Assembly (NCBI GenBank): GCA_964459725.1
Contig: CAYWNT010000002.1
Location: 83,719 to 147,718, forward strand
DNA: 64,000 nt
DNA from: an uncultured Gammaproteobacteria bacterium
GTDB taxonomy: Bacteria > Patescibacteriota > Patescibacteriia > Patescibacteriales > UBA12075
Reading direction: 5' to 3'
The translations under genes and the position numbers were made by a program. The notes below the pieces were generated by a model. It had not been told where the DNA came from and did not search any database. It worked only from the letters and a program-made list of their open reading frames with translations. This document shows positions 5,520 to 60,291 of the stretch, one piece after another. Each line of letters starts with the position of its first letter. Positions within the stretch are counted from its first letter, which is position 1.

Positions 5520-6569
5520 ATGAAAAAGATATTTATTGCTATATTAATAATCTCTCTACTCTTCCCTGTATTTGGTGGTGTAAAAAATACACAGGCCGAA
5601 ATTAATCGTTCCGGCTATATTCTCTTACAAGTCGAGGATAATGGTGAGGCTTGGTATGTCTATCCTAAGACTCAAAAGAGATACTACATGGGAAGACCTC
5701 TTGATGCATTTAATTTAATGAGGCGAGTAGCCCTAGGGGCGAAGCATGACTTTATTGATTCGACCAAAATCTTCCCGAATAGACTATCCGGACAAATACT
5801 TCTAGATGTAGAAATGAATGGAGAGGCTTATTATATTTACCCAAATGACCAACGTAAGTACTACCTAGGCCGACCCGCAGACGCTTTCCGGATTATGCGA
5901 GAGCTGGGCCAGGGCATCAGCAATACTGGATTATCACAGATACCAATCGGAGATATTGATAACATCGAAGCAGACATCCCTGCAACAGGAAAAGTACTTC
6001 TCGATGCTCCCTTCGCCCCGCAAGCTCCTTTTGGCAATTGGAATGACCAACGACAACAAGACGGCTGCGAAGAGTCATCGGCTCTCATGGCTGTGAAGTG
6101 GGCTCACGGAGAGAGTCTGACTTACACAGAGGCTCTCGATGAAATAATTTCTATTTCTGACTTCGAGCTAGAAAAATATGGTGAATACAGAGATATTTCC
6201 ACGCTGGATACAGTCAACTGGATTTTCAAGGATTACCTAAACTACGACAAAGTAGAGCTAAAGACAAACATAAGCATCCAAGACATAATCAACGAACTTA
6301 GGGCTGGCAATCTAGTTGTTGTCCCAGCAGATGGACAAGTCTTGAATAATCCATACTTCACTCCCCCAGGCCCACCTCGTCACATGCTTGTCATTAAAGG
6401 CTATGATCCTGTAAATCAAACCTTCATCACCAACGACCCAGGCACCAGACACGGTGAATCATTTGAGTACGATACAGAAATCCTATATGACGCCATTCGC
6501 GACTACCCCACCGGTTATCACGAACCAATTGAGAAAATTGAAAAAATGATGATAGTAGTGCGGAAATAA
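5520..6569 (+). CDS. secreted protein: signal peptide + 2x ~45-aa 'GEAWYVxP...RYYLGRPxDAF' repeats + C39-like papain-fold cysteine peptidase domain
   Basis: It has the signal peptide MKKIFIAILIISLLFPVFG. The tandem repeats are GYILLQVEDNGEAWYVYPKTQKRYYMGRPLDAFNLM and GQILLDVEMNGEAYYIYPNDQRKYYLGRPADAFRIM. The C-terminal segment QAPFGNWNDQRQQDGCEESSALMAV is peptidase_C39_2-like. Confidence 0.75.
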   Translation: MKKIFIAILIISLLFPVFGGVKNTQAEINRSGYILLQVEDNGEAWYVYPKTQKRYYMGRPLDAFNLMRRVALGAKHDFIDSTKIFPNRLSGQILLDVEMNGEAYYIYPNDQRKYYLGRPADAFRIMRELGQGISNTGLSQIPIGDIDNIEADIPATGKVLLDAPFAPQAPFGNWNDQRQQDGCEESSALMAVKWAHGESLTYTEALDEIISISDFELEKYGEYRDISTLDTVNWIFKDYLNYDKVELKTNISIQDIINELRAGNLVVVPADGQVLNNPYFTPPGPPRHMLVIKGYDPVNQTFITNDPGTRHGESFEYDTEILYDAIRDYPTGYHEPIEKIEKMMIVVRK

Positions 6570-8129: not shown

Positions 8130-8146
8130 GTTTTTGTAAAAATCAC

Positions 8147-9310: not shown

Positions 9311-9440
9311 AATAGAGTTTTGATAAATAAATATTATTATTTAAAATTATTTATATTATACCACATTTCCCAAAATAAAAAAAGCGCCGTTTCCTTGTTT
9401 TTCAAGGTCGTGCGCTTTTGTATTTGTGTTTTAAATTTTT

Positions 9441-10061
9441 TTATTTTTTTCTCATGGACATCAACCCAACGAATCCTGATCCAAGAAGCCAGATTGCTCC
9501 CGGAAGAGGTACTGTGGAAAGAGGTATGTCGGAATTATACCTTAACTGACCATAAAGTCCCTCATCAAAGTTTGGTATTTGGCCGGCATAAGTAGTCGTG
9601 TCATACTGAGCAAAGTCTACAGCTAGAACAAGTGGGTTGTTGTCTTGATCATATTCTACTTCCAGAATATCAAAATACCCCCAGCTTGTATTATTCCCTC
9701 TGCCCTCTCCTGTAAAAGAGAGTCCGGCACCGTCGTCAAGATTAAAAGGCCATCTCCATGCATCATGGTAATGCCCCACTTCAAGCAACTCGTCATTGGG
9801 TGCGGAAAGGTCAAGTGACCACCAATGATAATGGTTGGTTTCATCGCGCCAGTTCATCCGAAAATGAACGCTATTATAGGCGTTACTATATAATGATGAA
9901 TTTATATCCCCCACTATATCCTGAGACGAAAAACTTCTACCACCCCCAACCCAGTTTCCTGGATCAGAATCAAACTGCAGGATGAAATTACTTGCCTGAG
10001 CAAGTGTAGCCCCTACAAAAACGAAAGCCATCGCCAATACCACCAAAAAACTTTTTCGCAT
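9441..10061 (-). CDS. secreted protein with C-terminal VPLPA/PEP-CTERM-type sorting signal
   Basis: It has the signal peptide MRKSFLVVLAMAFVFVGATLAQA. The C-terminus is VPLPGAIWLLGSGFVGLMSMRKK, i.e. motif + TM helix + basic tail. GGAG lies upstream of the ATG at 10061. The gene is visibly GC-richer than its neighbours. Confidence 0.75.
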   Translation of the reverse strand: MRKSFLVVLAMAFVFVGATLAQASNFILQFDSDPGNWVGGGRSFSSQDIVGDINSSLYSNAYNSVHFRMNWRDETNHYHWWSLDLSAPNDELLEVGHYHDAWRWPFNLDDGAGLSFTGEGRGNNTSWGYFDILEVEYDQDNNPLVLAVDFAQYDTTTYAGQIPNFDEGLYGQLRYNSDIPLSTVPLPGAIWLLGSGFVGLMSMRKK

Positions 10062-10249
10062 TCCTTCTTCTCCTTTTTGAGAATTATTAAAACATATAAA
10101 TGTACAACGATAAAAAGTATAGCATTAAACCATAATTTTGTCAACCCCTGCAAAATTTTCCTCACCTAAAATCTTTGATTCTCCTCCAACATATCTAAAA
10201 ATCAATATAGATTGTTCCAACTTGTATTGATTACCCAATAGAGGCACAA

Positions 10250-11294: not shown

Positions 11295-11377
11295 TTGTTT
11301 TAAGAAAAATAGCACGGTAGGAATATATTCTGCCGTGTTTTTAATTGAGAAATTATAAATCGAAAATTTTATAAACA

Positions 11378-11705: not shown

Positions 11706-12947
11706 TTATTGTGTTAAAAGCTCCTCTCCCCTTTTCACCCAATAACCCTCTCCAAGCTGCTCCATCTCTAAAATATAATCGGAAATCAGACTCTCACGCT
11801 CTTCTTCGCCTGAAACAGTTTGAATATGTTTTTCCAAGAAATTATATTGAGTAGCCAGTCTTGTGTCCTTATCCTCAATTTGTAACCAAAGATTATTTTC
11901 AAAAACCCAACCAATAAAATCGGGGTCGTCTTTCTTGCTTTCTATTACCTCCAATAGCCTAGCTTGAGTTTCTTCGATTGAGGCGTCGGAATAATCATCA
12001 GTAGACAAGTATTTTTTTATCGGATCAAGCGTTGTATCTAAATATTCATCAAGATTTTCTGGAGCATACTCTATATCTCGTACGTCATAAGCAGGACGCA
12101 TAGTTAATCGAATTCGCTCTGGATTATTAGCAAGATTCATTGAGGATAATATTTCTACCAAGGCCTGAGTATCTGCAAAAGATAAATTAGTCTGGACCGT
12201 CTTATACATAATATATTGCCAAACTTTATTCATGCGTGAAGATTCAGAAGGAATATATTTCGTTAGTAAATATTTTAAAAAGGTTGAATGATCATGCGCT
12301 CTCTGCGGTTCACCAGCTGCATACGATTGTCGTTGTCGCAACCACCTGAGAGTGCTTATGGCAGGAAGTTTTAAATTTCTCAAAATTCCCAATACCTCAG
12401 AGAAACCTACAACTACCAGGTAATCGGCTTTCTTTCCAAGAATTTTTTCTATCTGATTAATGCCATATTCCAAACCACCCAAACCACAAGCATTTGATAT
12501 ATAATAATCAGAAGAAGTAGCACCTTTACCAGCTGGCAATGGCGAATATGTGCCGCGAGGAACAGCAGTTATAACCACGCTAGACGCTATCTTGTTGATA
12601 GTAATTAATTGAATAGCATCACAGTGCCCCATTGTCTCACCGACTCTTGCATCCAGACCGACCAGAAGAATATCCACCACTCCATCATCACCAAAAGGAT
12701 CAACTGTCTCATCATTTTTCACCACATCTGCCCGATGATCATTTTTTAACTTATCAACTACAGAAATATACTCTTTTTCTACCGTAGGAGGTACACGAAA
12801 AACAACATTGATCAATATTAAAACGCCAAGGCCGCAAAGAAACACTAAGAAGATTAAAATACGCCCCAAAAAAAATGCACCTGGGGTATAAATATATTTT
12901 TTCATGTATACATAGTTCAATTTAATACGTTTTAAGTATAACCCCAT
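11706..12947 (-). CDS. LytR-CpsA-Psr (LCP) family cell-envelope glycopolymer transferase with C-terminal extension
   Basis: It has an N-terminal TM anchor and the LCP core DILLVGLDARVGETMGHCDAIQLITINK...VVITAVPRGTY. An alternative start is MKKYIY at 12905. Confidence 0.8.
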   Translation of the reverse strand: MGLYLKRIKLNYVYMKKYIYTPGAFFLGRILIFLVFLCGLGVLILINVVFRVPPTVEKEYISVVDKLKNDHRADVVKNDETVDPFGDDGVVDILLVGLDARVGETMGHCDAIQLITINKIASSVVITAVPRGTYSPLPAGKGATSSDYYISNACGLGGLEYGINQIEKILGKKADYLVVVGFSEVLGILRNLKLPAISTLRWLRQRQSYAAGEPQRAHDHSTFLKYLLTKYIPSESSRMNKVWQYIMYKTVQTNLSFADTQALVEILSSMNLANNPERIRLTMRPAYDVRDIEYAPENLDEYLDTTLDPIKKYLSTDDYSDASIEETQARLLEVIESKKDDPDFIGWVFENNLWLQIEDKDTRLATQYNFLEKHIQTVSGEEERESLISDYILEMEQLGEGYWVKRGEELLTQ

Positions 12948-15557: not shown

Positions 15558-16388
15558 CTAATCTATATTTATAAAAAACTGAGTAATAAAATATTTTCCA
15601 TCTACTGCCCTATCAACCCCCACTCCGGTCATGTCATAAAAATCATTTTCCAAACTCGCCTTATGACCCGGGCTGGTAAGCCACCAAGTTAGAGCTTGCT
15701 TGGCTGGATCTGAACTATAATTCCAGGCCAGATTTTCCGCACCACCATTATAATCTTCTATTTTACTCTTTATAACACTTACCCTATCCTGAAATCCATC
15801 ATGGCTTAGCTCTATTTTCCCACTGGCCATATTCTGGCTATGCTCTCTTACTGGAAGCATAATGTCATCGCTCCACTCCAACTCAGAAACTCCAATTGAT
15901 TTTCTGTGATCGTTTATGACCTCAAAAACTCTTTTTTCAATGCTGGCATATTCGTACTCTCCATATACTTTTATTTTAGTCAGATCCAAATTTGTTATGC
16001 CCAGTCCTTTCTCTCTCATGATCTGAAAAGCGTCACTGGGTCTCCCCAGGTAATACCCCTTGAGATCCTTTGGGTAGATATAATAGGCCTCGCCGTTTTC
16101 CTCTACATCGATCAAAATCTTACCTAATAATCTCTGGGGAAATGTACTGTCTAAATACTGACTTAGTTCAGAGTGCTTGATACCCAGTCCGAGATTGCGC
16201 ATTATTTCAAAGGCATCATCAGGTCGGCCCAAATAATAACGATTTAAGTCATCAGGATAAACATACCAGGCCTCCCCTTTCTCCTCGACTTGCAATAGAA
16301 TCATCCCGCTTAAGTTCTCAGACAAATCGGCGAAAGCAAAGTACGGCACTGCAAACAATATAAAAATTAATAAAAAATATTTCTTCAT
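15558..16388 (-). CDS. secreted protein: signal peptide + 2x 'GEAWYVxP...RYYLGRPxDAF' repeats + CAP/SCP (YkwD-like) domain
   Basis: The repeats are GMILLQVEEKGEAWYVYPDDLNRYYLGRPDDAFEIM and GKILIDVEENGEAYYIYPKDLKGYYLGRPSDAFQIM. The CAP-like C-terminus reads ...HSQNMA..., GAENLAW... and WLTSPGHKASLENDFYDMTGVG. Confidence 0.8.
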   Translation of the reverse strand: MKKYFLLIFILFAVPYFAFADLSENLSGMILLQVEEKGEAWYVYPDDLNRYYLGRPDDAFEIMRNLGLGIKHSELSQYLDSTFPQRLLGKILIDVEENGEAYYIYPKDLKGYYLGRPSDAFQIMREKGLGITNLDLTKIKVYGEYEYASIEKRVFEVINDHRKSIGVSELEWSDDIMLPVREHSQNMASGKIELSHDGFQDRVSVIKSKIEDYNGGAENLAWNYSSDPAKQALTWWLTSPGHKASLENDFYDMTGVGVDRAVDGKYFITQFFINID

Positions 16389-31328: not shown

Positions 31329-32654
31329 ATGCCACATAAATTTAAAAAAATATCCTTATTAACGGGCGATATTGCTATTCTCTACGCTTCTCTTTTTCTT
31401 GCCCTATTTATCCGCTACAAATCAGTATACCAAAATTGGAATGACCATTTTTGGCATTTTTCAATAATCTTTAGCATTTGGATTATTATTTTTTACATCT
31501 CCAATTTGTACAATCTGCATATTGCTATAAACAATTCAACATTTTTCAACAGAATCTTAAAAACAATCGGAATATCAGGTTTTGTTGCCGTGCTATATTT
31601 TTATACAAATCCGAATATTGGAATTTCTCCTAAAACCAACTTGATTATATTTCTTGTGCTATTTTCTATTCTTTTCATGACATGGCGGAGGCTATTTAAC
31701 TGGGTTCTGAGCTCATACATGCCCAAAGAAAATATTGGGATTATCGGGTACAACGAACAAACAAAAGAACTGATAAAAACAATTCAAGAAAGACCTCACC
31801 TAGGATACAGAATCTCCTTTGTAATAGATCATGACGAGGTAGATAAAATCTCTAATCTAAAAAAAATAATTTCTGAGAAAAAAATCTCTTCTATTATTCT
31901 CTCTTACTCTCTCCATCAATCCCCTAATTTACGCTCCACGCTCTTCTCTTGTCTCTCACTAAAAATCAATATTTTAAACCTTCCTGATTTTTATGAAAAA
32001 ATTACAGGAAAAATCCCTTTAGACGCTATTAATCAAATGTGGTTTTTGGAAAACTTAACCGAAGGAAGTAAAAAATTGTTTGATCTATTCAAGCGCTTCT
32101 ATGATATTGTCCTAGCTCTCTTAATACTGGCATTAACCAGTCTTTTCTGGCCGATTATCGGACTTATCATAAAGCGAGAGAGCAAGGGACCTGTATTTTT
32201 TACCCAAAAAAGAAAAACCAAGAATAATAAAAACTTTTCCATCATAAAGTTTAGAACCATGACTGTCTCCAGTAATAACTACTCCCCAACCACAGTCAAT
32301 GATAGCCGGATAACAAAATTTGGAAATTTACTGCGCAAAACCAGAATTGATGAAATACCACAAGTTTTAAACATCCTCGTGGGTGACATGAGTTTTGTCG
32401 GCCCTCGTCCTGAAAGACCTGAATATGCTGATGAGCTAAAAAAAGAAATACCATTTTACGAAGAAAGAATGCTGGTCAAACCTGGTCTTACTGGTTGGGA
32501 CCAGATTTCAGGCGAATATCACTCCCCCTCAAAAGAAGACACCATCAAGAAAATGCAATATGATCTCTTCTATATAAAAAACAGATCGATTTACCTCGAT
32601 CTGTCTATTATCCTTAAAACAGTTGCAACTATTTTAAGTAAAGGTGGTATGTAG
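31329..32654 (+). CDS. polyprenyl-phosphate glycosyl-1-phosphate transferase (bacterial sugar transferase, WbaP/EpsB-type)
   Basis: It has an N-terminal multi-TM region and a C-terminal catalytic domain: KRESKGPVFFTQKR..., RIDEIPQVLNILVGDMSFVGPRPERPEY and GWDQISG. Confidence 0.9.
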   Translation: MPHKFKKISLLTGDIAILYASLFLALFIRYKSVYQNWNDHFWHFSIIFSIWIIIFYISNLYNLHIAINNSTFFNRILKTIGISGFVAVLYFYTNPNIGISPKTNLIIFLVLFSILFMTWRRLFNWVLSSYMPKENIGIIGYNEQTKELIKTIQERPHLGYRISFVIDHDEVDKISNLKKIISEKKISSIILSYSLHQSPNLRSTLFSCLSLKINILNLPDFYEKITGKIPLDAINQMWFLENLTEGSKKLFDLFKRFYDIVLALLILALTSLFWPIIGLIIKRESKGPVFFTQKRKTKNNKNFSIIKFRTMTVSSNNYSPTTVNDSRITKFGNLLRKTRIDEIPQVLNILVGDMSFVGPRPERPEYADELKKEIPFYEERMLVKPGLTGWDQISGEYHSPSKEDTIKKMQYDLFYIKNRSIYLDLSIILKTVATILSKGGM

Positions 32655-33133: not shown

Positions 33134-35335
33134 CTATTTATCTAAATTTCCAAGAAACTCTTCGGCGTATTCTTTTATATTTGGATTAACTTTTACAGCA
33201 GCTTCGACTGCTTTTTTTGCATTTTCATTATCTCCTGATCCAGCGTAAAGCTTGGCCAAGTTTATCCAATGAGTTGCGACTTTTGGTTCTAGCTTTGTCA
33301 ATCTTTTGTATAGATTAATAACCTTAGGCCAATCTTCCTGCTCTGCGTATCTATTTACCAACCCCTTCACAAAGCCAGCTGGAGCGAGTAGATTTGCTCC
33401 CCCTACTGATCCAACACATTCATCTAAGTATTTATAACCCTCGTCTTCTTTCTGCAGAAAAATCAAAGTTTTTCCTAGATGACAAGCGCTATCCCAATAT
33501 TCAGGACTCAAATCATAAGCGTACTTCAGTGTTTCTAGGGCCTTATCTTTCTCATCTCTGGTTATAAGTATTTGAGATTTTTGATAGTAGATTGGTACTC
33601 TGCCCGGACTTGCTTCAATCGATTTATCAATAGCTTCTAAAGCTCTACCAGAATAATAGTTAAACTTATCAGGAGTTCCAATATAGGTGCTGGCAACGCT
33701 ATTTAAAACCTGAGCCAACATCATCTGGGCCATACTGTCTCCAGGATTATAAGCTACATTTTTCTCAGCTAACTCTATAATATAATCCTTTGTCTCCTCT
33801 CTTTTTTCCGGATTGATACCATTATAGGCTCTAGGATTTGAAAATGCCCTTATCAAGCTAGTTCTACTATCACGATCAAGTACAGTATCAAGACTCAGGG
33901 CCTTTTTGTACTCTTCAATCATCATCTCTTTATTGTTTGCCACCTTTTGTCCCTCAATGGTGCCGATAAGCATTCTCCATGGCTTTACATTGTATTGATA
34001 CGCAATCAAGAGCATAATAATAGCAGCCAGAACCAAAATTGATTTTTCCTTATTAATAAATCCCTCATCTTTGGGCAATTCTTCTTGTTCGAGCTCACCT
34101 CTTGTATTCATCCAATACACATAGCCCAAAGTTATCATTATGCCAATATATGTTGCTAAGGAATCGAAAACAGCCAGATTCTGCACAAAATAAGCAATTA
34201 TCAGAGAAGAAACTAGCACAAACTCGTGAATATTCTGTTTTCCTGCCCTATAGCCTGTAACAATATAATATCCAGCTGCTATAAATATTGATAAATAAGT
34301 TACCAATCCCAGTATGCCTGTTGTGGTGGCAATATCTATTAGGTTGTTATGTGCTCTATCAAAATATGTTTCTTGCCTTGTGTAGTTATAAAAATCAGGA
34401 TCAAAATGCTTATCAAATACAATGGCGAAATTACCATGACCGGTTCCAAGCAGTGGATGATTTTTTAGGTCAGTCAATCCTGCCCTCCAAGAAATAAGTC
34501 GAGTTTGGAAAGTATTTTTCTCTATATTTATTCCACGGGCATTTTTCAAAAATGGTGTATTTTTTACAAAATCACTATCTCTGTTACTTAAAACCAAAAA
34601 AGAAGACAAGATCAAAACAGCAAACAAGGATAGAGTTGTAATTTTTATTTTCTTATTTTTACTCAAAATTCCATACAAGAATGTCGCCACCATCAAACTA
34701 AATCCAAGACCCACCAAGGCTCCAGTTGTATTGGCCTTGTTGAAATGCATTAGCATTAATACTACCGGCAAAATATAGAGCCATCTATAGTCATTTTTCC
34801 TCTCCTTGAAAAACAAAAGAAAAGAAAAATACATATTAAATATCAAATAGCCACTTACGTATGCTGAATTTCCAATCGTGCTGTATGACTTTACACCTCC
34901 TAATCCCTTAAGGGCTACAATGATCGCCACAAAAACAGAGGACATCATTAATATCCTCCAATCCTTCCATTCTCGAAAGACGGTAATAATAATCAAATAA
35001 AGGATGAAAAAGTGCAAAATATGAAAAGCACCAAGCATCCTCTCAATATCTCCCCAGAAGCTCAAATTAAAATCAACTCCAGTAAAACAAGAAAGGACCA
35101 TCATCACAAAAAATGCTCCCAAACCAAAAGTAACATAAGACCACTTAGGTCTGTACACTGGATATTTTATGATAAATACAAGCCAGAGCACAAACAACGC
35201 CTCCATTAAAATGTTAAACGGAAGCTGCTTAGAAGTGATAAACGGAAATAAAAGATTCTTAAAAACAAATAATACGCTAAAAAGTGATAAATATACACCA
35301 ATTTGCAATATTCTTAAATACATTTTTTGACTCAT
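33134..35335 (-). CDS. O-antigen ligase/polymerase-like (Wzy_C) multi-pass membrane protein fused to C-terminal TPR domain
   Basis: It has more than 10 TM segments, the Wzy_C-like loop GTGHGNFAIVF...YFDRAHNNLIDIATTTGILGL, and a C-terminal ~280 aa of TPR-like repeats. The track start (35398) is a TTG overlapping TATATAAT; the ATG at 35335 is preferred. Confidence 0.8.
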   Translation of the reverse strand: MSQKMYLRILQIGVYLSLFSVLFVFKNLLFPFITSKQLPFNILMEALFVLWLVFIIKYPVYRPKWSYVTFGLGAFFVMMVLSCFTGVDFNLSFWGDIERMLGAFHILHFFILYLIIITVFREWKDWRILMMSSVFVAIIVALKGLGGVKSYSTIGNSAYVSGYLIFNMYFSFLLFFKERKNDYRWLYILPVVLMLMHFNKANTTGALVGLGFSLMVATFLYGILSKNKKIKITTLSLFAVLILSSFLVLSNRDSDFVKNTPFLKNARGINIEKNTFQTRLISWRAGLTDLKNHPLLGTGHGNFAIVFDKHFDPDFYNYTRQETYFDRAHNNLIDIATTTGILGLVTYLSIFIAAGYYIVTGYRAGKQNIHEFVLVSSLIIAYFVQNLAVFDSLATYIGIMITLGYVYWMNTRGELEQEELPKDEGFINKEKSILVLAAIIMLLIAYQYNVKPWRMLIGTIEGQKVANNKEMMIEEYKKALSLDTVLDRDSRTSLIRAFSNPRAYNGINPEKREETKDYIIELAEKNVAYNPGDSMAQMMLAQVLNSVASTYIGTPDKFNYYSGRALEAIDKSIEASPGRVPIYYQKSQILITRDEKDKALETLKYAYDLSPEYWDSACHLGKTLIFLQKEDEGYKYLDECVGSVGGANLLAPAGFVKGLVNRYAEQEDWPKVINLYKRLTKLEPKVATHWINLAKLYAGSGDNENAKKAVEAAVKVNPNIKEYAEEFLGNLDK

Positions 35336-35525
35336 AATTTTAGTGAAAAGCAGTCGAATACGACCGACAATTATATATAGAAAAAAGCGACCAAACAATC
35401 GCTTTTTTATTAATTATTCTTAATTTAGATTATATCAAATCCAAAACTAATGTCAATTTCTGTAGTAATACTATTATTTCCTCTAATCTGGTATAATAAA
35501 ATTAAATACACATCTAATAAATCAA

Positions 35526-36773
35526 ATGAAAAATATAAAACAAAAAATTTACAGCCTTGTTAAAAAATCAGAAAAATGGACAAAAACAGACATGGTCTAT
35601 CTGGCCAAAAATGGCTCATGGATAGCTCTTAGTAGGTCCATTGGTATTATTTCTGCTTTTTTGCTGTCGATTGCCTACGCCAATCTCCTGCCGAAAGAAA
35701 CATACGGGCTCTATAAATACACCCTCTCCATAGCGGGTCTTCTTGGTATTTTCTCTCTTCCTGGTATTAATACATCGCTAATTAGATCAATATCACTCGG
35801 ACACGAAGGATCATTCGGCAAAGCTCTCAAAACAAAGGTCAAATGGGGATTTTTAGGGCTTGTAGTCGGTCTATCTGTTTCTGGTTATTATTTCTTTAAT
35901 GGCAATCTCGTTATTGCATCTGGATTTTTGATAGCCTCTTTTTTTGTGCCGATCACAGAAGTTTTCAATATCTCCGGGTGCTATCTTCAAGGAAAAAAAT
36001 TATTCAAGACTTCCGCCATGGTCAATTCCATAAAAAGTATTCTTTTCGCAATCGCAATTGTTTCCACTATATTTTTTACAAAAAATATTGTTTTAATATT
36101 GCTTGCTTTTTATTTCTCAACCTTAATTTTTCAAATTGCTATATATTTATATATTTTCAAAAAATATAAGAGAAATAATAGTATCGACAACTCTACAATC
36201 TCCTTTGGCAAACACCTTAGCCTAATTAGTATCATAGAGAAACTGGCAATGCATATTGATAAAATTTTAATGTGGCACCTTTTGGGTCCTGCTAAATTGG
36301 CAGTTTATGCTTTTGCTACATTGCCTGTCATACAACTCAATTCGCTCTTAAAAATCATTCCCACTCTTTCCTTCCCCAAACTGACTGTCCAAAACAGAAA
36401 CGAACTAAAGAAAACCCTACCCCAAAAGACCATGAAGCTACTATTGCTCTTGATAATTCCTGTAATAATTTACTACACTCTAGCCCCACTGCTTTTCAAA
36501 CTTCTCTTCCCTGAATACCTTGAAGCAATTAAATATTCTCAAATATACTCATTATCAATCCTGACAATTCCTCTCGGCATGTTTGCCACAACAATAACTG
36601 CTAAAGCGCACAAGCGATATCTCTACATAATAAAAACTATAAATCCATCGATTAAAATTATTTTATACGCCATGCTAATACCAGCATTTGGAATCAACGG
36701 GGCCATAGCAAGCTTCATTCTGGCCAATGTTATTAATTCCCAAATATCATTTTTCTTTTTTAAAAAATTATAA
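35526..36773 (+). CDS. polysaccharide flippase (Wzx / MOP superfamily)
   Basis: 415 aa with ~12 TM segments and a typical 'polysaccharide biosynthesis protein' profile. It sits in the glycan locus. Confidence 0.75.
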   Translation: MKNIKQKIYSLVKKSEKWTKTDMVYLAKNGSWIALSRSIGIISAFLLSIAYANLLPKETYGLYKYTLSIAGLLGIFSLPGINTSLIRSISLGHEGSFGKALKTKVKWGFLGLVVGLSVSGYYFFNGNLVIASGFLIASFFVPITEVFNISGCYLQGKKLFKTSAMVNSIKSILFAIAIVSTIFFTKNIVLILLAFYFSTLIFQIAIYLYIFKKYKRNNSIDNSTISFGKHLSLISIIEKLAMHIDKILMWHLLGPAKLAVYAFATLPVIQLNSLLKIIPTLSFPKLTVQNRNELKKTLPQKTMKLLLLLIIPVIIYYTLAPLLFKLLFPEYLEAIKYSQIYSLSILTIPLGMFATTITAKAHKRYLYIIKTINPSIKIILYAMLIPAFGINGAIASFILANVINSQISFFFFKKL

Positions 36774-36776
36774 TTT

Positions 36777-37664
36777 ATGTCAAACAAAATAAAACCAGAT
36801 TTTATCGGTATTGGACCAGGGAGATCATCCTCGACCTGGATTTTTGATTGTATAAATGAGCATCCTGATTCATGTCTTTCAATCCCAAAAGAGACAAAGT
36901 TCTTCTGGGATGATGGTGAAGACATGACTAATTATGAAGCCTTCTACAAGCACTGTGGTCAGAATAAAATAATTGGCGAGTTTACTCCAGGCTACATATA
37001 TAGTAGAAAGGCTGCTGAAAGAATAAAAAAATATTATGGAAAAACCAAAATAATCACTTACTAGAGAAATCCTCTAACCAAGCTTTCCTCTGTTTATTAT
37101 TTCAATAAGCACCGAGGTATTATTAATTTCGACGACATCAACCAAAGAATTAATTTTGATCTAAAAAATAATGATCCAGATGGTTATCTTCAAAAAGGAT
37201 TTTATTATAAATATTTAAAAAACTATTACGATCTTTTTGATAAAAATCAGATACTGGTTTTAAAATACGAAGACATAGAAAGAGACCCAAAAGAATTTAT
37301 TAAAAAAATCTATCAATTCTTAAATCTAGACGATAATTTCGTGCCTGACCTACTTAATAAAAAAGTAAATATCACAGCCAAAAATACAAGACGATTCCCG
37401 GTTCTTAATAAAATTTATTTTTCGACCAAAAAGTATTTAAACGAAAATAAAAAATATAATATACTTAAAATTTTAAAAGTTATAAAGGTCCACAAGCTCG
37501 TCAGCTTTATACTGAAACATAATTTACGACAAAAAGGTATTGTGCCACTAAAAAAACAGGATATCAATCCTGAATTTAAAGAAAAACTAATAAAATACTA
37601 CAAAGAAGATACTTTACAACTAGAAAACTTAACTTCTGTAGATTTTAAAGAATGGCTCAGTTAA
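36777..37664 (+). pseudogene. sulfotransferase interrupted by a single in-frame TAG (37062-37064)
   Basis: The 5'-PSB-like loop is IGIGPGRSSSTWI. The TAG falls in ..KIITY*RNPLTKLSSVY.., exactly at the 3'-PB 'RxP..R..S' region. Both halves are in the same frame, and I translated no other stop between 37065 and 37664. Confidence 0.7.
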
Positions 37665-37819
37665 AACAAGGTATAAATAAGTGGCGCTACCACACTGCCC
37701 TCAGCAAAAATTAATAGCATACCCAAAAGTAGTAAAATAATAACTATTGGGATTAACCAGTATTTTTTTCTTTGTTTTAAAAAACTTAAAAATTGTAAAA
37801 AAATAGTAAATTTTGTCAT
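37661..37819 (-). CDS. DUF5989 (SxtK-like) small membrane protein; not in ORF track (52 aa)
   Basis: The reverse complement gives MTKFTIFLQFLSFLKQRKKYWLIPIVIILLLLGMLLIFAEGSVVAPLIYTLF*. The signature ...RKK(Y/W)WL.PI... and the C-terminal APxIYTLF match the family usually found after carbamoyltransferase/SxtJ. It starts 1 nt after the SxtJ stop. Confidence 0.7.
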   Translation of the reverse strand: MTKFTIFLQFLSFLKQRKKYWLIPIVIILLLLGMLLIFAEGSVVAPLIYTLF

Positions 37820-37820
37820 A

Positions 37821-38243
37821 TTAAAATAGATTTTCTAGATCCTGTTTGGATACAGGTTCTTTTTTTATCCAATAAGTATTTAAATCTTTGTTGATTTTTT
37901 TATTTAAGAAATCTCCTTTTATCACTCTAACACATAATCCGATTGGTAGCAAAAATAAATAATACAATATTATCAACAACAATCTCGAAACAAAATACCC
38001 AATAAACAAAGAAATTCCCATCCACAACAAATACAAATATGAAACCAGCTCAACCCTATAGAGAGAAACAATAAAATAAGCAAGGATTATATAAAAGATC
38101 AGACTAATTTCTTTACCACTCAAAAAAAAGAAGAACCCGATCAAAACTATTATCACCAAAAATAATATCGAAAACTTTCTCAGTTGTTTTTCGCTTCTAT
38201 CTATTTTTTTTAATTGTTTGTAAATATCTTTCAAAAAATTCAT
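37821..38243 (-). CDS. SxtJ-family small membrane protein
   Basis: 140 aa with three or four TM segments and a C-terminal ...RVIKGDFLNKKINKDLNTYWIKKEP (SxtJ-like 'GkDpL...d...sYW' tail). It lies downstream of a carbamoyltransferase. Confidence 0.65.
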   Translation of the reverse strand: MNFLKDIYKQLKKIDRSEKQLRKFSILFLVIIVLIGFFFFLSGKEISLIFYIILAYFIVSLYRVELVSYLYLLWMGISLFIGYFVSRLLLIILYYLFLLPIGLCVRVIKGDFLNKKINKDLNTYWIKKEPVSKQDLENLF

Positions 38244-38249
38244 ATATAT

Positions 38250-39452
38250 TTATTCTTCCCTTTTTAAAAGAAGCTCGTTATTAATCGCTTCGGCAATTCT
38301 TTTGTAGCCCTCGGGCAAAGGATGGCCGTCTAATGATTCAGGATATATCTTTTGTCCCTGACTCAAAGCCAGAGACATGTGCTCTGTCACGTCTATAAAA
38401 GGTAAATTATTTTCCAAGCAAAAACTCTTTGTCTCCTCTATTACATTTTTCTCCTTTTCTATAATATCATTCAAATATTCACCTATCTCTATTCCCTCTT
38501 TATTAAAATACTGACTGTAAACATATTCTTTGGTAGGAATGATAACAATCACAAATTCTGCCTCCTTCTCATTGGTATCATCTCTCATCTCTATCCATAA
38601 TTTTTTGGTAATAGCAAATCCTTCTTTGGTATCAGGATTACTGAGATCGACTGTGTTGTATCTATAAGTCGGGCTCATTATTGTCCCTAAATTATCATGT
38701 TCATAGTAGTAGCCTTTGTCTGGATTGTCTTGGAGCCATTTTTTTATTCTCTGATTTTTTTCTTCATTCGTTTCAGCTAGGCCCATTTTCTCTCTGGCCT
38801 TTCTCGTAACATTTCCAAGTAGTGAATAGAAATAGCTCTTACTTCTAATATAGTCCCTAGTTCTTCTGAGTTTGTATTTAAATGAACCAGAGTCCTGTCC
38901 GCTCTTTATCATCCTTCTCACATCCTCACTTCTTGTTGACTCAGTAGTATTTTCTTTCTTCTCCTCATTTCGTAAGTGCTTCCAGTTTTCATTATTGTAA
39001 ACAATATGATAAGCATCCAATAAATCATTGCCAAGATAAAATCCATGCAAAACATATTCCGGATTAAAGCTAAGAGCCTTATCTAGTAAATAATAATGCT
39101 GCACTATAGCTCTCTCAATGAAAGCCATTTGGTATACAGTCTTATCAGAAATCGAATCTAAAGCCTGTGGCCATGCTTCGTCCATCTCAGCATTTAACCC
39201 TTGGGTCTGAGAATCTCCCATGGCAACAATATCTACCTTTTCTGGAACAGATTTATTTCGAAAACCATTATCATCCCAGGCGCCTTTCTCTCCGGCTACG
39301 TGTCCCAATATTTCATGCTCCACTCTTTCGTATTCTGACTTGTCTACTTTGACAATACGTAAAACCACTTCAGCCAGCAATACTGAAAATAAAACACTCA
39401 CCAAAATTAAGGTTAAATTTATTAATAAATTTTTTTTATTAGTCCAACTCAT
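38250..39452 (-). CDS. SGNH/GDSL-type hydrolase or O-acyl/esterase, membrane-anchored
   Basis: Block I is VAMGDSQTQG and block V-like is LDGHPLPEGY. It has an N-terminal TM anchor. The start is set at the ATG at 39452 (GGAGAG upstream) rather than 39476. Confidence 0.7.
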   Translation of the reverse strand: MSWTNKKNLLINLTLILVSVLFSVLLAEVVLRIVKVDKSEYERVEHEILGHVAGEKGAWDDNGFRNKSVPEKVDIVAMGDSQTQGLNAEMDEAWPQALDSISDKTVYQMAFIERAIVQHYYLLDKALSFNPEYVLHGFYLGNDLLDAYHIVYNNENWKHLRNEEKKENTTESTRSEDVRRMIKSGQDSGSFKYKLRRTRDYIRSKSYFYSLLGNVTRKAREKMGLAETNEEKNQRIKKWLQDNPDKGYYYEHDNLGTIMSPTYRYNTVDLSNPDTKEGFAITKKLWIEMRDDTNEKEAEFVIVIIPTKEYVYSQYFNKEGIEIGEYLNDIIEKEKNVIEETKSFCLENNLPFIDVTEHMSLALSQGQKIYPESLDGHPLPEGYKRIAEAINNELLLKREE

Positions 39453-41262
39453 ATTTCTCTCTCCAATTTTCGTCATTTTCTAATTTTTTTTGATTTTCCT
39501 TATCAATAACAAAATTACCCATCACTAAATAATCCATTTCTGTCCTCATAAAGCACTTATAAGCGTCTTCAGGCGTGCAAACTATTGGCTCACCTCTTAC
39601 ATTGAAAGAGGTATTGACCACCAAGGGACAATCGGTTATCTCATAAAAAGAATTTATCAATTCATAATATCTCTCATTTCTCTCCTTGCTTACGGTTTGA
39701 AGTCTAGCCGAATAGTCAACATGCGTTATAGCAGGAACTACAGATCTCTTTGTTTTTAGCTTATCTAATCCGCTTACTACCTCTTTTTCGGTTGATATTT
39801 CAACTTTTTTATTATCCCTTATGTTTGTGGTGATCAGCATGTAAGGCGAAGGTCTATCTATGTTAAAAAAATCTGATGCCTTATCTTCCAAAACAGAAGG
39901 GGCAAAAGGACGAAAGCTTTCTCTGTATTTAATTTTCAAATTCATTTCCTTTTGCGTCTTTGATGATCTAGGATCCCCCAATATAGATCTGTTACCCAGA
40001 GCTCTCGGCCCAAATTCCATTCTACCCTGAAACCAGCCAATTATTTTTTGCTCAGAAATAAGCTCGGCAGTTTTTTTACATAAATCATTATCATTTTCTA
40101 TGTAATCATAACCAATACCCGACTTATCTAAATATTTTCTAATACTTTCATCTGAAAATTCCGGGCCGAAGTAAGAGCCATTCTGCTCTGACACATTTTT
40201 GTCGTCAACAAATCTTTTTCCGTCAAAATAATGATACCAGGCGTACAAGGCAGCCCCTAGAGCTCCACCAGCATCCCCTGAAGCTGGCTGAATCCAAATA
40301 TCCTTGAAAGGACCCTCTCGTAATATTCTGCCATTAGAAACACAATTCAAGGCAACACCTCCAGCTAGGCATAAGTATTTTTTTCCAGTTTTCTTATGAA
40401 CAAAGTTTACTATTCTGAGCATCAACTCCTCTGTAACAACCTGAATAGACCTGGCTATGTCCATTTCTTTTTGTGTAATCTCGGTTTCTGACTTTCTCGG
40501 ACTCCCTCCAAACAACTCATCAAACTTTTTATTAGTCATCTTGAGTCCAGCAGGATAATTAAAATAATCCATATTCAACCTGAAAGATCCATCTTCTTTT
40601 ATGTCAATCAAATTATCATAAATAACATCAACGTATTTTGGCTCACCGTAAGGAGCGAGTCCCATTAACTTGTACTCCCCCGAGTTAACTCTAAATCCTG
40701 TATAATAAGTAAACGCAGAATACAAAAGTCCCAAAGAATGAGGAAAATGAATCTCTAGGAGTGTATTTATCTTATTATCCTCTCCCACTCCAAATGAAGT
40801 TGTAGCCCACTCACCCACTCCATCAACAGTTAAAAAAGCCGCCTCCTGGAAAGGCGAAGAAAAAAAGGAAGACGCAGCGTGTGACAAGTGATGTTCGGCA
40901 AATAATATCTTACCCTTGTAGTCGGTTTCCCTCTGAACCACTTGAGGAATCCATAATTTCTTCTTTAGCCAAGCCTGCATGGCCTTGATAAATGATCTGA
41001 TTCCTTGTGGAGCATAAGCCAGATAAGTCTCTAGTATTCTTTCAAATTTTAAAAACGGCTTATCGTAAAAAACGATAGCCTCTATGTCATTTATATCCAC
41101 CCCTGCCTTATCTAAACAGTATTTGATAGACTGTGTTGGAAAACTTTGGTCATGCTTCACACGTGTAAATCTCTCCTCTTGGGTTGCGGCAATTATCTCT
41201 CCATCTCTCAAGAGACAAGCTGCACTATCATGATAGAAGCATGACAATCCTAGTATTATCAT
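39439..41262 (-). CDS. carbamoyltransferase (NodU/CmcH family)
   Basis: MIILGLSCFYHDSAACLLRDGEIIAATQEERFTRVKHD is a canonical N-terminus, followed by ...LAGGVALNCVSNG... and ...NTSFNVRGEPIV. The protein is 607 aa. Confidence 0.92.
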   Translation of the reverse strand: MIILGLSCFYHDSAACLLRDGEIIAATQEERFTRVKHDQSFPTQSIKYCLDKAGVDINDIEAIVFYDKPFLKFERILETYLAYAPQGIRSFIKAMQAWLKKKLWIPQVVQRETDYKGKILFAEHHLSHAASSFFSSPFQEAAFLTVDGVGEWATTSFGVGEDNKINTLLEIHFPHSLGLLYSAFTYYTGFRVNSGEYKLMGLAPYGEPKYVDVIYDNLIDIKEDGSFRLNMDYFNYPAGLKMTNKKFDELFGGSPRKSETEITQKEMDIARSIQVVTEELMLRIVNFVHKKTGKKYLCLAGGVALNCVSNGRILREGPFKDIWIQPASGDAGGALGAALYAWYHYFDGKRFVDDKNVSEQNGSYFGPEFSDESIRKYLDKSGIGYDYIENDNDLCKKTAELISEQKIIGWFQGRMEFGPRALGNRSILGDPRSSKTQKEMNLKIKYRESFRPFAPSVLEDKASDFFNIDRPSPYMLITTNIRDNKKVEISTEKEVVSGLDKLKTKRSVVPAITHVDYSARLQTVSKERNERYYELINSFYEITDCPLVVNTSFNVRGEPIVCTPEDAYKCFMRTEMDYLVMGNFVIDKENQKKLENDENWREKYELD

Positions 41263-41272
41263 ATTATATAAA

Positions 41273-42235
41273 TCAACTCCTTAAAATGGCCAGCATTTTC
41301 TCAGCGGCACTTTTCCAAGTAAACTTCAAAATATTATTATAAGCATTTTCTGCTAATTTTTTTCTTAAACCTTCGTCTTTCGCCAATCTCACAATTGCTT
41401 TAGCATATGCTTCCTCATCACGGACAGGCACAATAATAGAATTAACTCCGTCTACTGCAACCTCCTTGTTTTGCTCTATATCTCCGCATATTACCGGCAC
41501 CTTGCAGGCCATGGCCTCTGCAATTGGATTATTCCAACCAGCATAGTACTGGGCATCTACAAAAATATCAGCACTACTATATTCTCTAGCCATCTCAGAC
41601 TGTGGTAATCCTTTTCCTGTATACTCATCCATAAACAATGATGGTACTTCTTTCTTGGCAATTTCTACGGCCCTCCTAATAGTGGAAGTACCCTTCCATA
41701 ATCGATTACCACCAATACATAAAACCTTCATCTTGTTTTCTTCCTTTTCAAACTCAGCCGGGTAAAACATCTTCTGATCAACACCACCAAGTACCACCTC
41801 AGAAGAAATATCCATATTTTCTCTAAGCCAATTCTTACTATCAGTGCAATTTACAATTATCTTAACGTCCTTGTCTAGTAGCGCCTTCTTTAGCTGATAA
41901 GCTCTTTTATCTATAAAAAAAAGAAGAAAACAAGGCAAGAGTAGATTCTTTTTATTGTACAAATTGCAACAATAAAAATATTTCTTTCTCGCTTTTACTT
42001 GTTTGACGTTTTTATAGTCTATCTGATCATAATACACCAATACATCATGCTCCCTGTTTAAAAAATCTTCCAATGAAAAAATGTCAGCCTTCACATCGAG
42101 CCAACGACACTTACTACCATCACTGTGAAAAATACTTACATATATACCCATGGAAATTAAATGACTACTGAGTTCAATGACCCTTCTAATACCTCCTTTT
42201 AATTTTAAATGTGGAACTAAAAAACTAATTTTCAT
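41273..42235 (-). CDS. glycosyltransferase (GT-B, GT4-like)
   Basis: The C-terminal Glycos_transf_1-like region reads ...ADIFVDAQYYAGWNNPIAEAMACKVPVI. The start is set at the ATG at 42235 (MKISFLVPH), 4 nt after the upstream stop. Confidence 0.8.
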   Translation of the reverse strand: MKISFLVPHLKLKGGIRRVIELSSHLISMGIYVSIFHSDGSKCRWLDVKADIFSLEDFLNREHDVLVYYDQIDYKNVKQVKARKKYFYCCNLYNKKNLLLPCFLLFFIDKRAYQLKKALLDKDVKIIVNCTDSKNWLRENMDISSEVVLGGVDQKMFYPAEFEKEENKMKVLCIGGNRLWKGTSTIRRAVEIAKKEVPSLFMDEYTGKGLPQSEMAREYSSADIFVDAQYYAGWNNPIAEAMACKVPVICGDIEQNKEVAVDGVNSIIVPVRDEEAYAKAIVRLAKDEGLRKKLAENAYNNILKFTWKSAAEKMLAILRS

Positions 42236-42239
42236 AAAT

Positions 42240-43268
42240 TTATGCCATGCCATCATGTCTTGGACAAAAAACACACATTGGTGATGGAGTATCTGTATAG
42301 AGCATTCTTCTAAACTCTCGATAATCTTTATTATTCCAAATATTTTTCAAACTATCTTTGTATAAATTACCAAAATTTACATTTCGAGGATCCATTCCTT
42401 GCACACAACAAGGAGTAATATCCCCCTCTACTGAAATAAACGGCCTTTCCGAAGGCATTCTGCATTTGTAACCAGAAACTGGTGATAAGGGCGGATAAGA
42501 AAATATCACACCAATTTTCTCAGCATATTCTCTAGCCTCCTTCAAATATTTTTCAGACATCTCTCTATTTTCAGGATGATAAAGTGCGTTTATATCATAC
42601 TTATCATTTCTTCCTCGATGATCAACAAGCCCTCTTATCTTAACCTTTTTTACACCAGTCTCCTTGGCAAAATCCAATATTTTTTCAATCTCTTTTATTC
42701 TTGGAGGTATAACTACAGAGTATATTTCTACTCTAATATCACTTCCGCTCTCCCTGTGCTGATTCATGAAATTTTTTATATTCTCTTTTACTATTTGAAA
42801 ATTAGAGCCTATTCTAATCTTGTTATACTCTTCTTCGATCCCAGAATCAATAGAAAAAATAAGAGACTTTAAACCGCTATTAAGTATCCTTTCTGTATTC
42901 TGACTATTCAGCAATGTACAATTAGTAGAAAAAGAAGTGGAAATCCCTTTTTCAGAAGCATATTTCACCATCTTTAATAAGTCACCATTAAGTAGCGGCT
43001 CTCCATATCCTGTAAAATTAATAGATTTCAGTTTTTTAAATTGCTTAATAATTTTTATAAAATTATCAAAATCAATATCTTTTTTATCAACTCTCTGCTT
43101 CATCTCATCATCACACATCGTACATCTCAGGTTGCACCTAATGGTTGTTTCAATTTGGACTTCCTCCGGCTTTGAAAAATCATAGCCACCACCTATAAGT
43201 GCCTCTTTATACTTTGTTATTTTTCTGAGTATTGAATTTATTGATAATTTGCTAATGGAATTAATCAT
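42240..43268 (-). CDS. radical SAM enzyme with SPASM-type C-terminal Cys cluster
   Basis: CNLRCTMCD (CX3CX2C), with C-terminal CRMPSERPF..., ITPCCVQG... and CVFCPRHD. Confidence 0.85.
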   Translation of the reverse strand: MINSISKLSINSILRKITKYKEALIGGGYDFSKPEEVQIETTIRCNLRCTMCDDEMKQRVDKKDIDFDNFIKIIKQFKKLKSINFTGYGEPLLNGDLLKMVKYASEKGISTSFSTNCTLLNSQNTERILNSGLKSLIFSIDSGIEEEYNKIRIGSNFQIVKENIKNFMNQHRESGSDIRVEIYSVVIPPRIKEIEKILDFAKETGVKKVKIRGLVDHRGRNDKYDINALYHPENREMSEKYLKEAREYAEKIGVIFSYPPLSPVSGYKCRMPSERPFISVEGDITPCCVQGMDPRNVNFGNLYKDSLKNIWNNKDYREFRRMLYTDTPSPMCVFCPRHDGMA

Positions 43269-43971
43269 GCTTCTTACATTTTACAAAAAATATCCTTGGC
43301 TCCTGCCTTTCAGAATTAAATTCAGAAATTTCAGCCGAATAATAATCTGTATAAATTTTTTGAATATTTATAAGTCTGGATATTGTATTTATAATTTTTC
43401 TAATTATTCTATATGAATAAAATTTTGGAATTAATCTCTGGCCATAAAACTTATCTACCCCCAGATATGGGCTTAGCTCCTCTTTGAGTCCTTCATAATC
43501 ATATTCAAGAACGTGAAATTTATTTACTGGTTTTTTTGTGAAAGGAGAGGTAATTTTCTTATTAGGAGTTGATAGCAACAAAACGCCATCTTTTTTCAAC
43601 CACTTGTTTAGATTTTTTAAATACTTGATTCTGTCTTCTTTCTCTAGATGCTCAATAGTTTCAAAACTACATATGACGTCAAAGCTCTCATCCTCGAATA
43701 ATTCATCAGTTGCTGAGGCGCAAATAAACTCAATGTTGCTTTTTTGAAATCTGTCTTTAGCATACTCAATGCTCTCTCTGGATAAATCTACCCCCGTCAC
43801 CTTTCTCGCCTTTTGACTAAGCAAACTAGAGCCATAACCTGTTCCACTGGCAATATCCAACACAGCCCTTTTTTCTACATATTTTTTGGCAAAATTATAT
43901 CGTGCCATATGCTCATCAATCAATCTCTTTTTTGATAATTCTGGCACGAATTGTTCTCCGGTAAATTTCAT
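43261..43971 (-). CDS. class I SAM-dependent methyltransferase
   Basis: Motif I is VLDIASGTGYG and the post-I region is VTGVDLS. The FETIEHL motif is also present. Confidence 0.85.
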   Translation of the reverse strand: MKFTGEQFVPELSKKRLIDEHMARYNFAKKYVEKRAVLDIASGTGYGSSLLSQKARKVTGVDLSRESIEYAKDRFQKSNIEFICASATDELFEDESFDVICSFETIEHLEKEDRIKYLKNLNKWLKKDGVLLLSTPNKKITSPFTKKPVNKFHVLEYDYEGLKEELSPYLGVDKFYGQRLIPKFYSYRIIRKIINTISRLINIQKIYTDYYSAEISEFNSERQEPRIFFVKCKKHD

Positions 43972-45017: not shown

Positions 45018-45029
45018 TACGATGGGTTA

Positions 45030-45710: not shown

Positions 45711-45718
45711 AGTTTTAT

Positions 45719-46438: not shown

Positions 46439-46440
46439 AT

Positions 46441-52392: not shown

Positions 52393-52393
52393 A

Positions 52394-54999: not shown

Positions 55000-55002
55000 A
55001 AT

Positions 55003-56448: not shown

Positions 56449-56459
56449 AAATTAACCAC

Positions 56460-57572: not shown

Positions 57573-57586
57573 GAAATTTTAGAAAA

Positions 57587-60258: not shown

Positions 60259-60291
60259 AAAGATATCGCTAAAAGGATAATAATTTTTCCA

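Follow-up and report, generated by a model that had tools for sequence, protein, structure and literature searches.

A VPLPA-like PEP-CTERM protein on a Patescibacteria-type contig with no exosortase in the surrounding ~82 kb

The PEP-CTERM/exosortase system (EpsH, Xrt) is a protein-sorting system described by Haft et al. in 2006 (PMC1569441). In that survey the PEP-CTERM signal was found only in bacteria with an outer membrane, true systems had a median of eight PEP-CTERM proteins per genome, and epsH lay ‘nearly always’ within an exopolysaccharide (EPS) locus (PMC1569441). The Pfam model PF07589 picks up just 22% of genuine PEP-CTERM instances, and Chlorobium tepidum provides a precedent for PEP-CTERM proteins without EpsH (PMC1569441). 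PepA (NCBIfam NF033554) is a flocculation-associated PEP-CTERM protein of Aquincola and Zoogloea; its overexpression raises the cell-bound share of EPS at the expense of the soluble share, suggesting a glycan-tethering role (PMC9850573). Here we describe a gene for a 206 amino acid (aa) protein with a PEP-CTERM-type tail in a 64-kb stretch of contig CAYWNT010000002.1, hereafter the window, whose host is, as judged from its genes, a member of the Patescibacteria (candidate phyla radiation, CPR). The sequence scanned comprised the window, ~8 kb of left flank and ~10 kb of right flank (~82 kb in total). The reading we favor, at a probability of roughly one half, is that of an old, horizontally acquired, distantly PepA-like surface protein whose tail serves as a cytoplasmic-membrane anchor without exosortase processing.

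The gene and the parts of its product are, in window coordinates:

9441..10061 (-): gene for the 206-aa PEP-CTERM-type protein, ATG start, from the open reading frame (ORF) listing
9993..10061 (-): Sec-type signal peptide MRKSFLVVLAMAFVFVGATLAQA, codons 1–23, predicted cleavage after AQA, read from the sequence
9516..9992 (-): all-beta cargo domain, codons 24–182, ~10 strands, no Pfam or NCBIfam model
9444..9512 (-): tripartite tail VPLP / GAIWLLGSGFVGLMSM / RKK, codons 184–206 (motif, short hydrophobic helix, basic cluster)

By inspection, the N-terminus (MRKSFLVVLAMAFVFVGATLAQA, then SNF) has the form of a Sec signal peptide that ends in an AxA cleavage site. In an AF2 model, residues 2–19 form a helix detached from the domain, in keeping with the Sec signal peptide proposed in the preliminary description of this stretch. 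The C-terminus, VPLPGAIWLLGSGFVGLMSMRKK, agrees with what was listed there; VPLP, GAIWLLGSGFVGLMSM and RKK occupy its final 23 residues, and AF2 places a helix in the tail at residues 189–204. The identical 206-aa protein was found on seven contigs from independent assemblies.

The same description called the tail a textbook tripartite VPLPA/PEP-CTERM signal and proposed scoring it with PEP-CTERM hidden Markov models (HMMs). Scored alone, the window protein falls below every curated cutoff: PF07589 gives 17.7 bits (cutoff 20.7, E=0.0039, residues 183–205), TIGR03370 (VPLPA-CTERM) gives 15.5 bits (cutoff 25.35, residues 184–201), and TIGR02595 gives no match, so that ‘textbook’ overstates the case. 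The signal itself is nevertheless borne out by family-level scans. Motif, helix and basic cluster are kept in 12 of the 14 sequences of an alignment of homologues, and the homologous tails match PF07589 (8/14, best E=1.1e-5), TIGR03370 (5/14, best E=1.1e-7) and TIGR02595 (5/14). All five of the best NCBIfam matches of the window protein are PEP-CTERM families. Because the tail is conserved and its homologues match PEP-CTERM models, we take the signal of the window protein to be real; by homology, its tail is a PEP-CTERM-class (VPLPA-like) signal at the family level. A count of PEP-CTERM paralogs, also proposed earlier, returned this one protein: a regular-expression search of all six-frame ORFs of at least 50 aa found a single PEP-CTERM-like tail in the scanned ~82 kb.

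The cargo domain is a widespread, unnamed extracellular module. The AF2 model built on the 14-sequence alignment (mean pLDDT 78.9) comprises an N-terminal helix, ~10 beta strands and the C-terminal helix at 189–204. The conserved motifs of the domain are GxGRGNNT, LAVDFxQ[YF]D and GxLRxNSDIP, and the window protein keeps all 21 invariant columns of the alignment. An exhaustive HMMER search with residues 24–182 returned 2,119 representative clusters at E<=1e-3, including 708 at E<=1e-10. Most matches are two to seven tandem copies within proteins of 500–2,600 aa, and these long proteins also bear TSP_3 or Calx-beta repeats. Their C-termini vary: short single-domain forms are PEP-CTERM-like, many long forms are Gly-rich and hydrophobic, and others have no such tail. 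Homologues of the window protein with an aligned tail are 200–250 aa long. Its best NCBIfam match is PepA (NF033554; E=7.5e-8, 32.5 bits against a cutoff of 80), in which residues 135–205, taking in the last two beta strands and the tail, align with model positions 192–258. On these scores the window protein is a distant PepA relative, not a family member or equivalog.

The cargo domain also occurs on the conjugative plasmid pSn of Simkania negevensis, a chlamydia-like organism (NC_015710.1, 31620–32105; 37.6% identity, annotated as hypothetical), and weaker copies are present on Photobacterium and Streptomyces replicons. These copies indicate that the domain travels on mobile elements. Separately, a low-GC contig (JACCDZ011918962.1, GC 0.34; positions 737–1291 of locus L060) encodes a 184-aa family member that has a PIPEP-type PEP-CTERM tail and adjoins rplK and nusG. 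It may be a second case of the 206-aa protein’s type in a low-GC lineage.

The earlier statement that the window has no exosortase-like gene holds across the whole ~82 kb. An exosortase was taken to be an EpsH/Xrt protein with at least eight transmembrane (TM) helices and conserved Cys, Arg and His. Precomputed Pfam matches of all genes in the ~82 kb include no exosortase, archaeosortase or rhombosortase. Pfam at E<=1, NCBIfam scans of the membrane and orphan proteins, and a scan of polytopic ORFs for a Cys..N..R signature likewise yielded no exosortase in this region. Two membrane proteins considered as divergent exosortases were rejected: a 660-aa, 14-TM orphan of the left flank, which matches no Pfam or NCBIfam family and whose homologues carry no Pfam domain, and a 140-aa, 4-TM protein that is weakly SxtJ-like. 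The same stretch contains a large set of glycan genes:

31329..32654 (+): generic EPS priming glycosylphosphotransferase (TIGR03025 364.7 against a cutoff of 295.55; TIGR03013 309.1 against 393.35)
33134..60318 (-): generic Wzx/Wzy-type glycan locus by precomputed Pfam, scanned in full, no exosortase

An EPS-like locus with an EpsB-type transferase had been reported here. Locus and transferase are both present, but they are generic: the transferase clears the general EPS model TIGR03025, not TIGR03013 (EpsB_2), the model of the XrtA/PEP-CTERM system, where it reaches 309.1 of the required 393.35. The locus encodes a Wzy_C-TPR protein, a flippase (on the plus strand), GT4 glycosyltransferases, methyltransferases, radical-SAM enzymes, a carbamoyltransferase, an MBOAT protein and CotH, VTC and DUF4956 proteins. 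Other markers of an XrtA-type EPS locus stay under their cutoffs: PrsT (TIGR02917) scores 32.4 against 312.2, in a TPR region only, and the glycosyltransferase models reach at most 91.6 against 409.05 (stp2) and 82.2 against 442.05 (stp3), with none of stp1–3 at cutoff in the glycan locus. An XrtA-type EPS locus was rejected, since no marker family reaches its cutoff. Because locus and priming transferase are generic, they have no specific tie to the PEP-CTERM protein.

Several parts of the glycan locus are of interest in their own right. A trio at 45030–48753 (-) encodes a 770-aa protein with CotH and Beta_helix domains, a VTC-domain protein and a DUF4956 membrane protein. A cassette at 37661–41262 (-) encodes a NodU-like carbamoyltransferase (607 aa), a weakly SGNH-like 408-aa protein, the SxtJ-like 140-aa protein with four TM helices and a 52-aa DUF5989 protein, which suggests glycan carbamoylation. 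Two radical-SAM/SPASM enzymes (42240–43268 (-) and 56460–57572 (-)) lie among the glycosyltransferases beside methyltransferases, an unusual tailoring set.

The host assignment draws on independent assemblies and on gene content. The window lies within JGI contigs Ga0115649_1000811 (3300009008; 93,743 bp) and Ga0105000_1000011 (3300007511; 301,085 bp) and within the 318,313-bp ENA scaffold SUTE22-1_SAMN10231914_METAG-scaffold_20 (ERZ23498639), where window position 1 falls at about 250,268. Assemblies from at least five data sets match it at 99.7–100%, and at 100% across the PEP-CTERM gene and its neighbors, which were assembled independently in JGI 3300009008, JGI 3300007510, ENA SUTE22-1 and Logan SRR8062320/1. 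This agreement excludes a chimeric assembly, which we accordingly rejected. One overlapping locus, L011, equals window positions 1–12710 at 100% identity (12.7 kb) and extends into the left flank. There, at its positions 1095–3077, ~5–7 kb left of the window start, lies the gene for the 660-aa orphan (called as 641 aa), with ~14 TM helices and a soluble C-terminal domain. The protein has at least 847 homologues; the best 120 are full length, with 43–52% identity and E-values of 1e-170 to 1e-196. Organism labels are available for 19 of these 120, and 17 of the 19 read Patescibacteria group, Candidatus Parcubacteria, Parcubacteria group or Candidatus Falkowbacteria; the other two are one ‘bacterium’ and one Planctomycetes-labeled metagenome-assembled genome. 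Since most of its labeled homologues are from Patescibacteria, the contig is of Patescibacteria (CPR) type. The 660-aa protein is also noteworthy as a member of a large, conserved and unnamed CPR membrane-protein family, and its gene adjoins one for a CDP-alcohol phosphatidyltransferase.

The remaining gene content includes type IV pilus genes, TuaC/TuaH-like and DltB-like enzymes, YkuD, an RtcB/LigT cluster, a bAvd gene and one transferase of the LytR-CpsA-Psr (LCP) type:

11706..12947 (-): LCP-like glycopolymer transferase (TagU E=4.6e-12, 45.8 bits against a cutoff of 441; Pfam LytR_cpsA_psr ‘faint’)

No outer-membrane, lipopolysaccharide (LPS), secretin or Wza-type gene was found in the ~82 kb. 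Together with the labels of the flanking gene’s homologues, this upholds the earlier view of a reduced, monoderm-type organism. CPR cells are generally regarded as lacking an outer membrane. The conserved housekeeping proteins GatA, RRF, DnaX and RtcB of this organism are singletons at 90% identity among ~15 billion proteins.

The PEP-CTERM gene stands alone behind a 378-nt intergenic region and has its own candidate expression signals:

10116..10144 (-): sigma-70-like promoter TTGACA-17-TATACT with an extended -10 TG, 55 nt upstream of the ATG, 11/12 consensus
10062..10076 (-): Shine-Dalgarno (SD) region AAAGGAGAAGAAGGA, directly 5′ of the ATG, read from the sequence
9377..9419 (-): terminator-like hairpin AAAAGCGCACGACCTTG-AAAAA-CAAGGAAACGGCGC followed by T7, 22 nt past the stop codon

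TTGACA-17-TATACT is a consensus match only, as promoter-like sites in the region are no more numerous than in shuffles. We rejected a sigma-54 promoter of the kind that precedes PEP-CTERM genes in proteobacteria, since the 378-nt upstream region has no GG-N10-GC core. RNAfold gives -19.3 kcal/mol for the 80 nt 3′ of the gene; a simple terminator scan overlooked the hairpin because its stem is bulged.

The gene is richer in GC than its surroundings, as stated earlier (0.435 against 0.349 for the window), and its codon usage is the fourth most atypical of 56 genes. The excess lies mainly at codon positions 1 and 2 (GC2 rank 1/56), and four other window genes have a GC of 0.41–0.43. GC at third codon positions (GC3) is 0.383 (rank 6/56, z=1.4), within the host range. 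The GC excess is mostly an effect of amino acid composition, and a recent transfer inferred from GC was rejected. Since GC3 is nearly host-like, any transfer must be old.

The possibility of horizontal acquisition raised in the preliminary description is backed by phyletic distribution, not by composition. A search of the GTDB species representatives with a six-sequence family alignment recovered single-domain proteins with a PEP-CTERM tail from Gamma-, Beta- and Deltaproteobacteria, Verrucomicrobiota and Omnitrophota (32–39% identity, GC 0.39–0.68). All of these named relatives belong to diderm phyla, and two homologues on long contigs sit amid diderm genes (an OEP/RND pump, LysR regulators, an ECF sigma factor). 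The closest sequences, at ~42–55% identity, are unlabeled, and a neighbor-joining tree (drawn without support values) gives the window protein a long branch and identifies no donor. With a promoter, SD and terminator to itself, the gene is a single-gene island, which fits a single-gene transfer; no exosortase was co-transferred beside it. A plasmid or phage route has no close support, the only matches being the distant cargo-domain copies on Simkania, Photobacterium and Streptomyces plasmids.

Two other secreted proteins of the window share a repeat that bears on which part of the protein is foreign:

5520..6569 (+): secreted C39-like peptidase (Pfam Peptidase_C39_2) with two GEAWY...RYYLGRP.DAF repeats, regular-expression matches at 5643 and 5820
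15558..16388 (-): secreted CAP-domain protein (Pfam CAP) with two copies of the same repeat, regular-expression matches at 16277 and 16094

The repeat is ~55 aa long (G.ILLQVE.NGEAWYVYP....RYYLGRP.DAF.IMR..GLGI....L..I) and is present as a tandem pair in both proteins. It has no match in Pfam, NCBIfam or the PDB, nor in the plasmid and phage collections. Possibly it serves as the lineage’s own surface-retention module, and it is presumably common in Parcubacteria. On a low-GC metagenome contig (L062, JGI Ga0265294_10035110) a secreted 955-aa protein (247–3114) combines a cargo domain 32% identical to that of the window protein with a trypsin-like protease region and two C-terminal GEAWY repeats (2632–3114), and has no PEP-CTERM tail; LemA and TPM genes follow. 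The cargo domain thus exists in CPR-like genomes with another anchor, and since it is joined there to the GEAWY repeat, the PEP-CTERM tail appears to be the foreign module. Diderm relatives, the lineage’s own repeat and the ameliorated GC3 together point to an old single-gene acquisition from a PEP-CTERM-using diderm.

We propose the following course of events. A Patescibacteria lineage would have gained a PEP-CTERM-class gene long ago from a PEP-CTERM-using diderm, and the gene would now be transcribed alone from the predicted sigma-70-type promoter. Sec would export the 206-aa protein and signal peptidase would cut it after AQA. Given the lack of an outer membrane and of an exosortase nearby, the tail most likely acts as a stop-transfer anchor only: the GAIWLLGSGFVGLMSM helix would span the cytoplasmic membrane and RKK would stay cytoplasmic, in an N-out, C-in topology, so that the beta domain of ~160 residues would be displayed on the outer face of the cytoplasmic membrane. 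The analogy with PepA suggests that the domain binds or organizes an extracellular glycan or mediates adhesion. The end state would be a degenerate, one-substrate remnant of a PEP-CTERM/exosortase system, reused as a membrane tether. In favor of this anchor, a full glycan locus, the usual site of epsH, is without an exosortase, and a single tail stands against the median of eight. Moreover, we found no mention of exosortases or PEP-CTERM in CPR genomes in the literature searched, and no exosortase, EpsH or PEP-CTERM term occurs in the searched supplements of a CPR protein-family census.

Several points weigh against a plain anchor. The ~82 kb scanned belong to a genome estimated at ~1 Mb, and substrate genes are usually scattered; the flanks of the diderm homologues contain no exosortase-like polytopic ORF either. 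VPLP and WLLGSG remain near consensus despite the ameliorated GC3, which implies continued selection on the motif and not just on hydrophobicity. The tail helix is short, Gly/Ser-rich and marginal as a permanent anchor, and a hydropathy scan did not call it. The view of a host without an outer membrane comes from general CPR knowledge, not from this organism’s own data. For the cargo domain, Pfam holds no model and Foldseek against the PDB finds no significant fold for the 206-aa protein (best matches lipocalin-like, E=0.025, TM 0.31).

The main rival is a canonical system, which we consider possible but doubtful. Here an exosortase-family enzyme encoded elsewhere in the genome, for example an XrtD-like, VPLPA-specific one, would cut at VPLP and transfer the protein to a surface or glycan acceptor, much as archaeosortase A does in archaea, also without an outer membrane. 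Enzymes of the exosortase family are known from organisms without an outer membrane, namely the archaeosortases and XrtG of Firmicutes. The best argument for such a system is the near-consensus VPLP...WLLGSG tail, kept through near-complete GC3 amelioration. Substrates usually lie far from the exosortase, as the diderm flanks without an exosortase-like polytopic ORF illustrate, and at least 236 kb of the same scaffold extend beyond the ~82 kb scanned. In genomes with more than two copies, PEP-CTERM predicts EpsH almost perfectly (PMC1569441). Yet the ~82 kb, whole glycan locus included, hold one PEP-CTERM tail and no exosortase, none of the markers EpsB_2, PrsT and stp1–3 reaches its cutoff, the gene looks like a single-gene acquisition, and exosortases in CPR go unmentioned in the literature and census supplements searched. 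That Patescibacteria have a working PEP-CTERM pathway, in which an exosortase or an unrelated enzyme would cut the VPLP tail and couple the protein to a glycan layer or wall, strikes us as rather unlikely.

Decay offers an improbable account: the protein would be left over from an old transfer, its tail would have no specific role, and it might be shed by a general membrane protease, for example the RseP homologue at 27317–28474, or be barely expressed. The tail does score lower than most of its relatives’ and below all cutoffs, the gene is the sole one of its kind in the ~82 kb, and its codon usage is among the most atypical (fourth of 56). However, the frame is intact with 21/21 invariant columns, a good promoter-like site, SD and terminator are in place, all assemblies of the population carry the identical sequence, and substitutions in the tail (K in place of R, for instance) are better explained by amelioration toward low GC than by decay. 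We give very little credence to an artefact, be it a chimeric or mis-binned contig or a diderm organism with a conventional exosortase system. The gene’s GC of 0.435 is above the window mean and all named homologues are diderm, but independent assemblies are 99.7–100% identical with the same neighbors, GC3 is in the host range, the flanking gene is of Patescibacteria type, and no outer-membrane, LPS, secretin or Wza gene occurs in the ~82 kb. Equally far-fetched, in our estimate, is that the C-terminus is merely a hydrophobic tail resembling PEP-CTERM by chance. The single-protein HMM scores are indeed all below curated cutoffs, but the tail aligns column by column with relatives that match PEP-CTERM (8/14) or VPLPA-CTERM (5/14; best E=1.1e-7), and the five best NCBIfam matches are all PEP-CTERM protein families.

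Other features of the region were recorded in passing. Divergent from the PEP-CTERM gene, 10440–11294 (+) encodes a 284-aa protein whose sole Pfam match is the RNA polymerase alpha C-terminal domain and which contains an exact internal duplication (EDADIYGP twice). The product of the downstream neighbor (8147–9310 (-)) is a membrane protein of 387 aa that has Cache_3-Cache_2 and HAMP domains and stops directly after HAMP, a sensor without a recognizable output domain. The sole mobile-element gene seen, an IS200-type Y1 transposase of 127 aa (15029–15412 (-)), is 5 kb from the PEP-CTERM gene and not adjacent to it. RtcB, a LigT-like 2′-5′ RNA ligase, a Memo/LigB-like protein and a DJ-1/PfpI protein are encoded in a row at 19413–22859 (-), an RNA-repair-type cluster. 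The minus strand encodes about 50 of the 56 listed genes, and almost all 1-kb bins show a negative GC skew, which places the window within a single replichore. Directly right of the window, beside gatA and gatC (L008 9599–9982), lies a gene for a 127-aa protein of the bAvd/23S-rRNA-IVP family, which supplies diversity-generating retroelements with their accessory protein; the 10 kb of right flank showed no reverse transcriptase.

A genuine PEP-CTERM tail stably kept in Patescibacteria tests the rule that ties this signal to an exosortase and an outer membrane. Should the genome lack an exosortase, the protein would be a clean natural illustration of how a sorting signal, once transferred into another type of envelope, can persist simply as a membrane anchor, and a caution against inferring sorting systems from tags alone. 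If an exosortase is present, the PEP-CTERM system would extend to the CPR, bacteria about whose surfaces and attachment to hosts little is understood. A working pathway would make this the first described case of PEP-CTERM sorting in a bacterium whose envelope is of the monoderm type, and the protein might then be an adhesion factor that an episymbiont took from its host.

Compared with the PEP-CTERM/exosortase system, the locus shares an N-terminal signal peptide, the motif, short helix and basic cluster at the protein end, a single-gene operon behind a large (378-nt) intergenic region and an EPS-type locus in the same region. It differs in its Patescibacteria-type host, in having no exosortase or second substrate in the ~82 kb, in the lack of a sigma-54 element, PrsK, PrsR and PrsT from the window, and in an EPS locus without XrtA-system markers. 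The cognate enzyme of VPLPA-CTERM (TIGR03370) is the exosortase XrtD. The window’s VPLPGA..WLLGSG aligns to positions 1–18 of that model, whereas its score is 15.5 against 25.35, its basic end is a short RKK and not an Arg-rich run, and no XrtD-like gene was seen in the scanned sequence. PepA and the window protein are both small, secreted, single-domain proteins and NF033554 is the best NCBIfam match; however, the match reaches 32.5 of 80 bits, there is neither an RpoN-dependent promoter nor an adjacent prsT, and the host is not a floc-forming betaproteobacterium. The orphans of Chlorobium tepidum (PMC1569441) are similar in that PEP-CTERM proteins are very few and EpsH is not detectable, which was read as the remnant of a ‘degenerate system’ that had lost its exosortase or lacks one, but that organism is diderm, and in the present case the absence of an exosortase is shown for ~82 kb only.

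The tripartite C-terminal signals of the PGF-CTERM/archaeosortase A (archaea) and LPXTG/sortase (Gram-positives) systems are processed in cells that have no outer membrane, which shows that a CPR envelope could in principle accommodate an exosortase-like pathway. The motifs (PGF, LPXTG) and enzymes of these systems are different, and neither enzyme was seen in the ~82 kb. By the homology of its tail, the window protein belongs with the PEP-CTERM proteins, a known signal in an unexpected lineage and not a new system.

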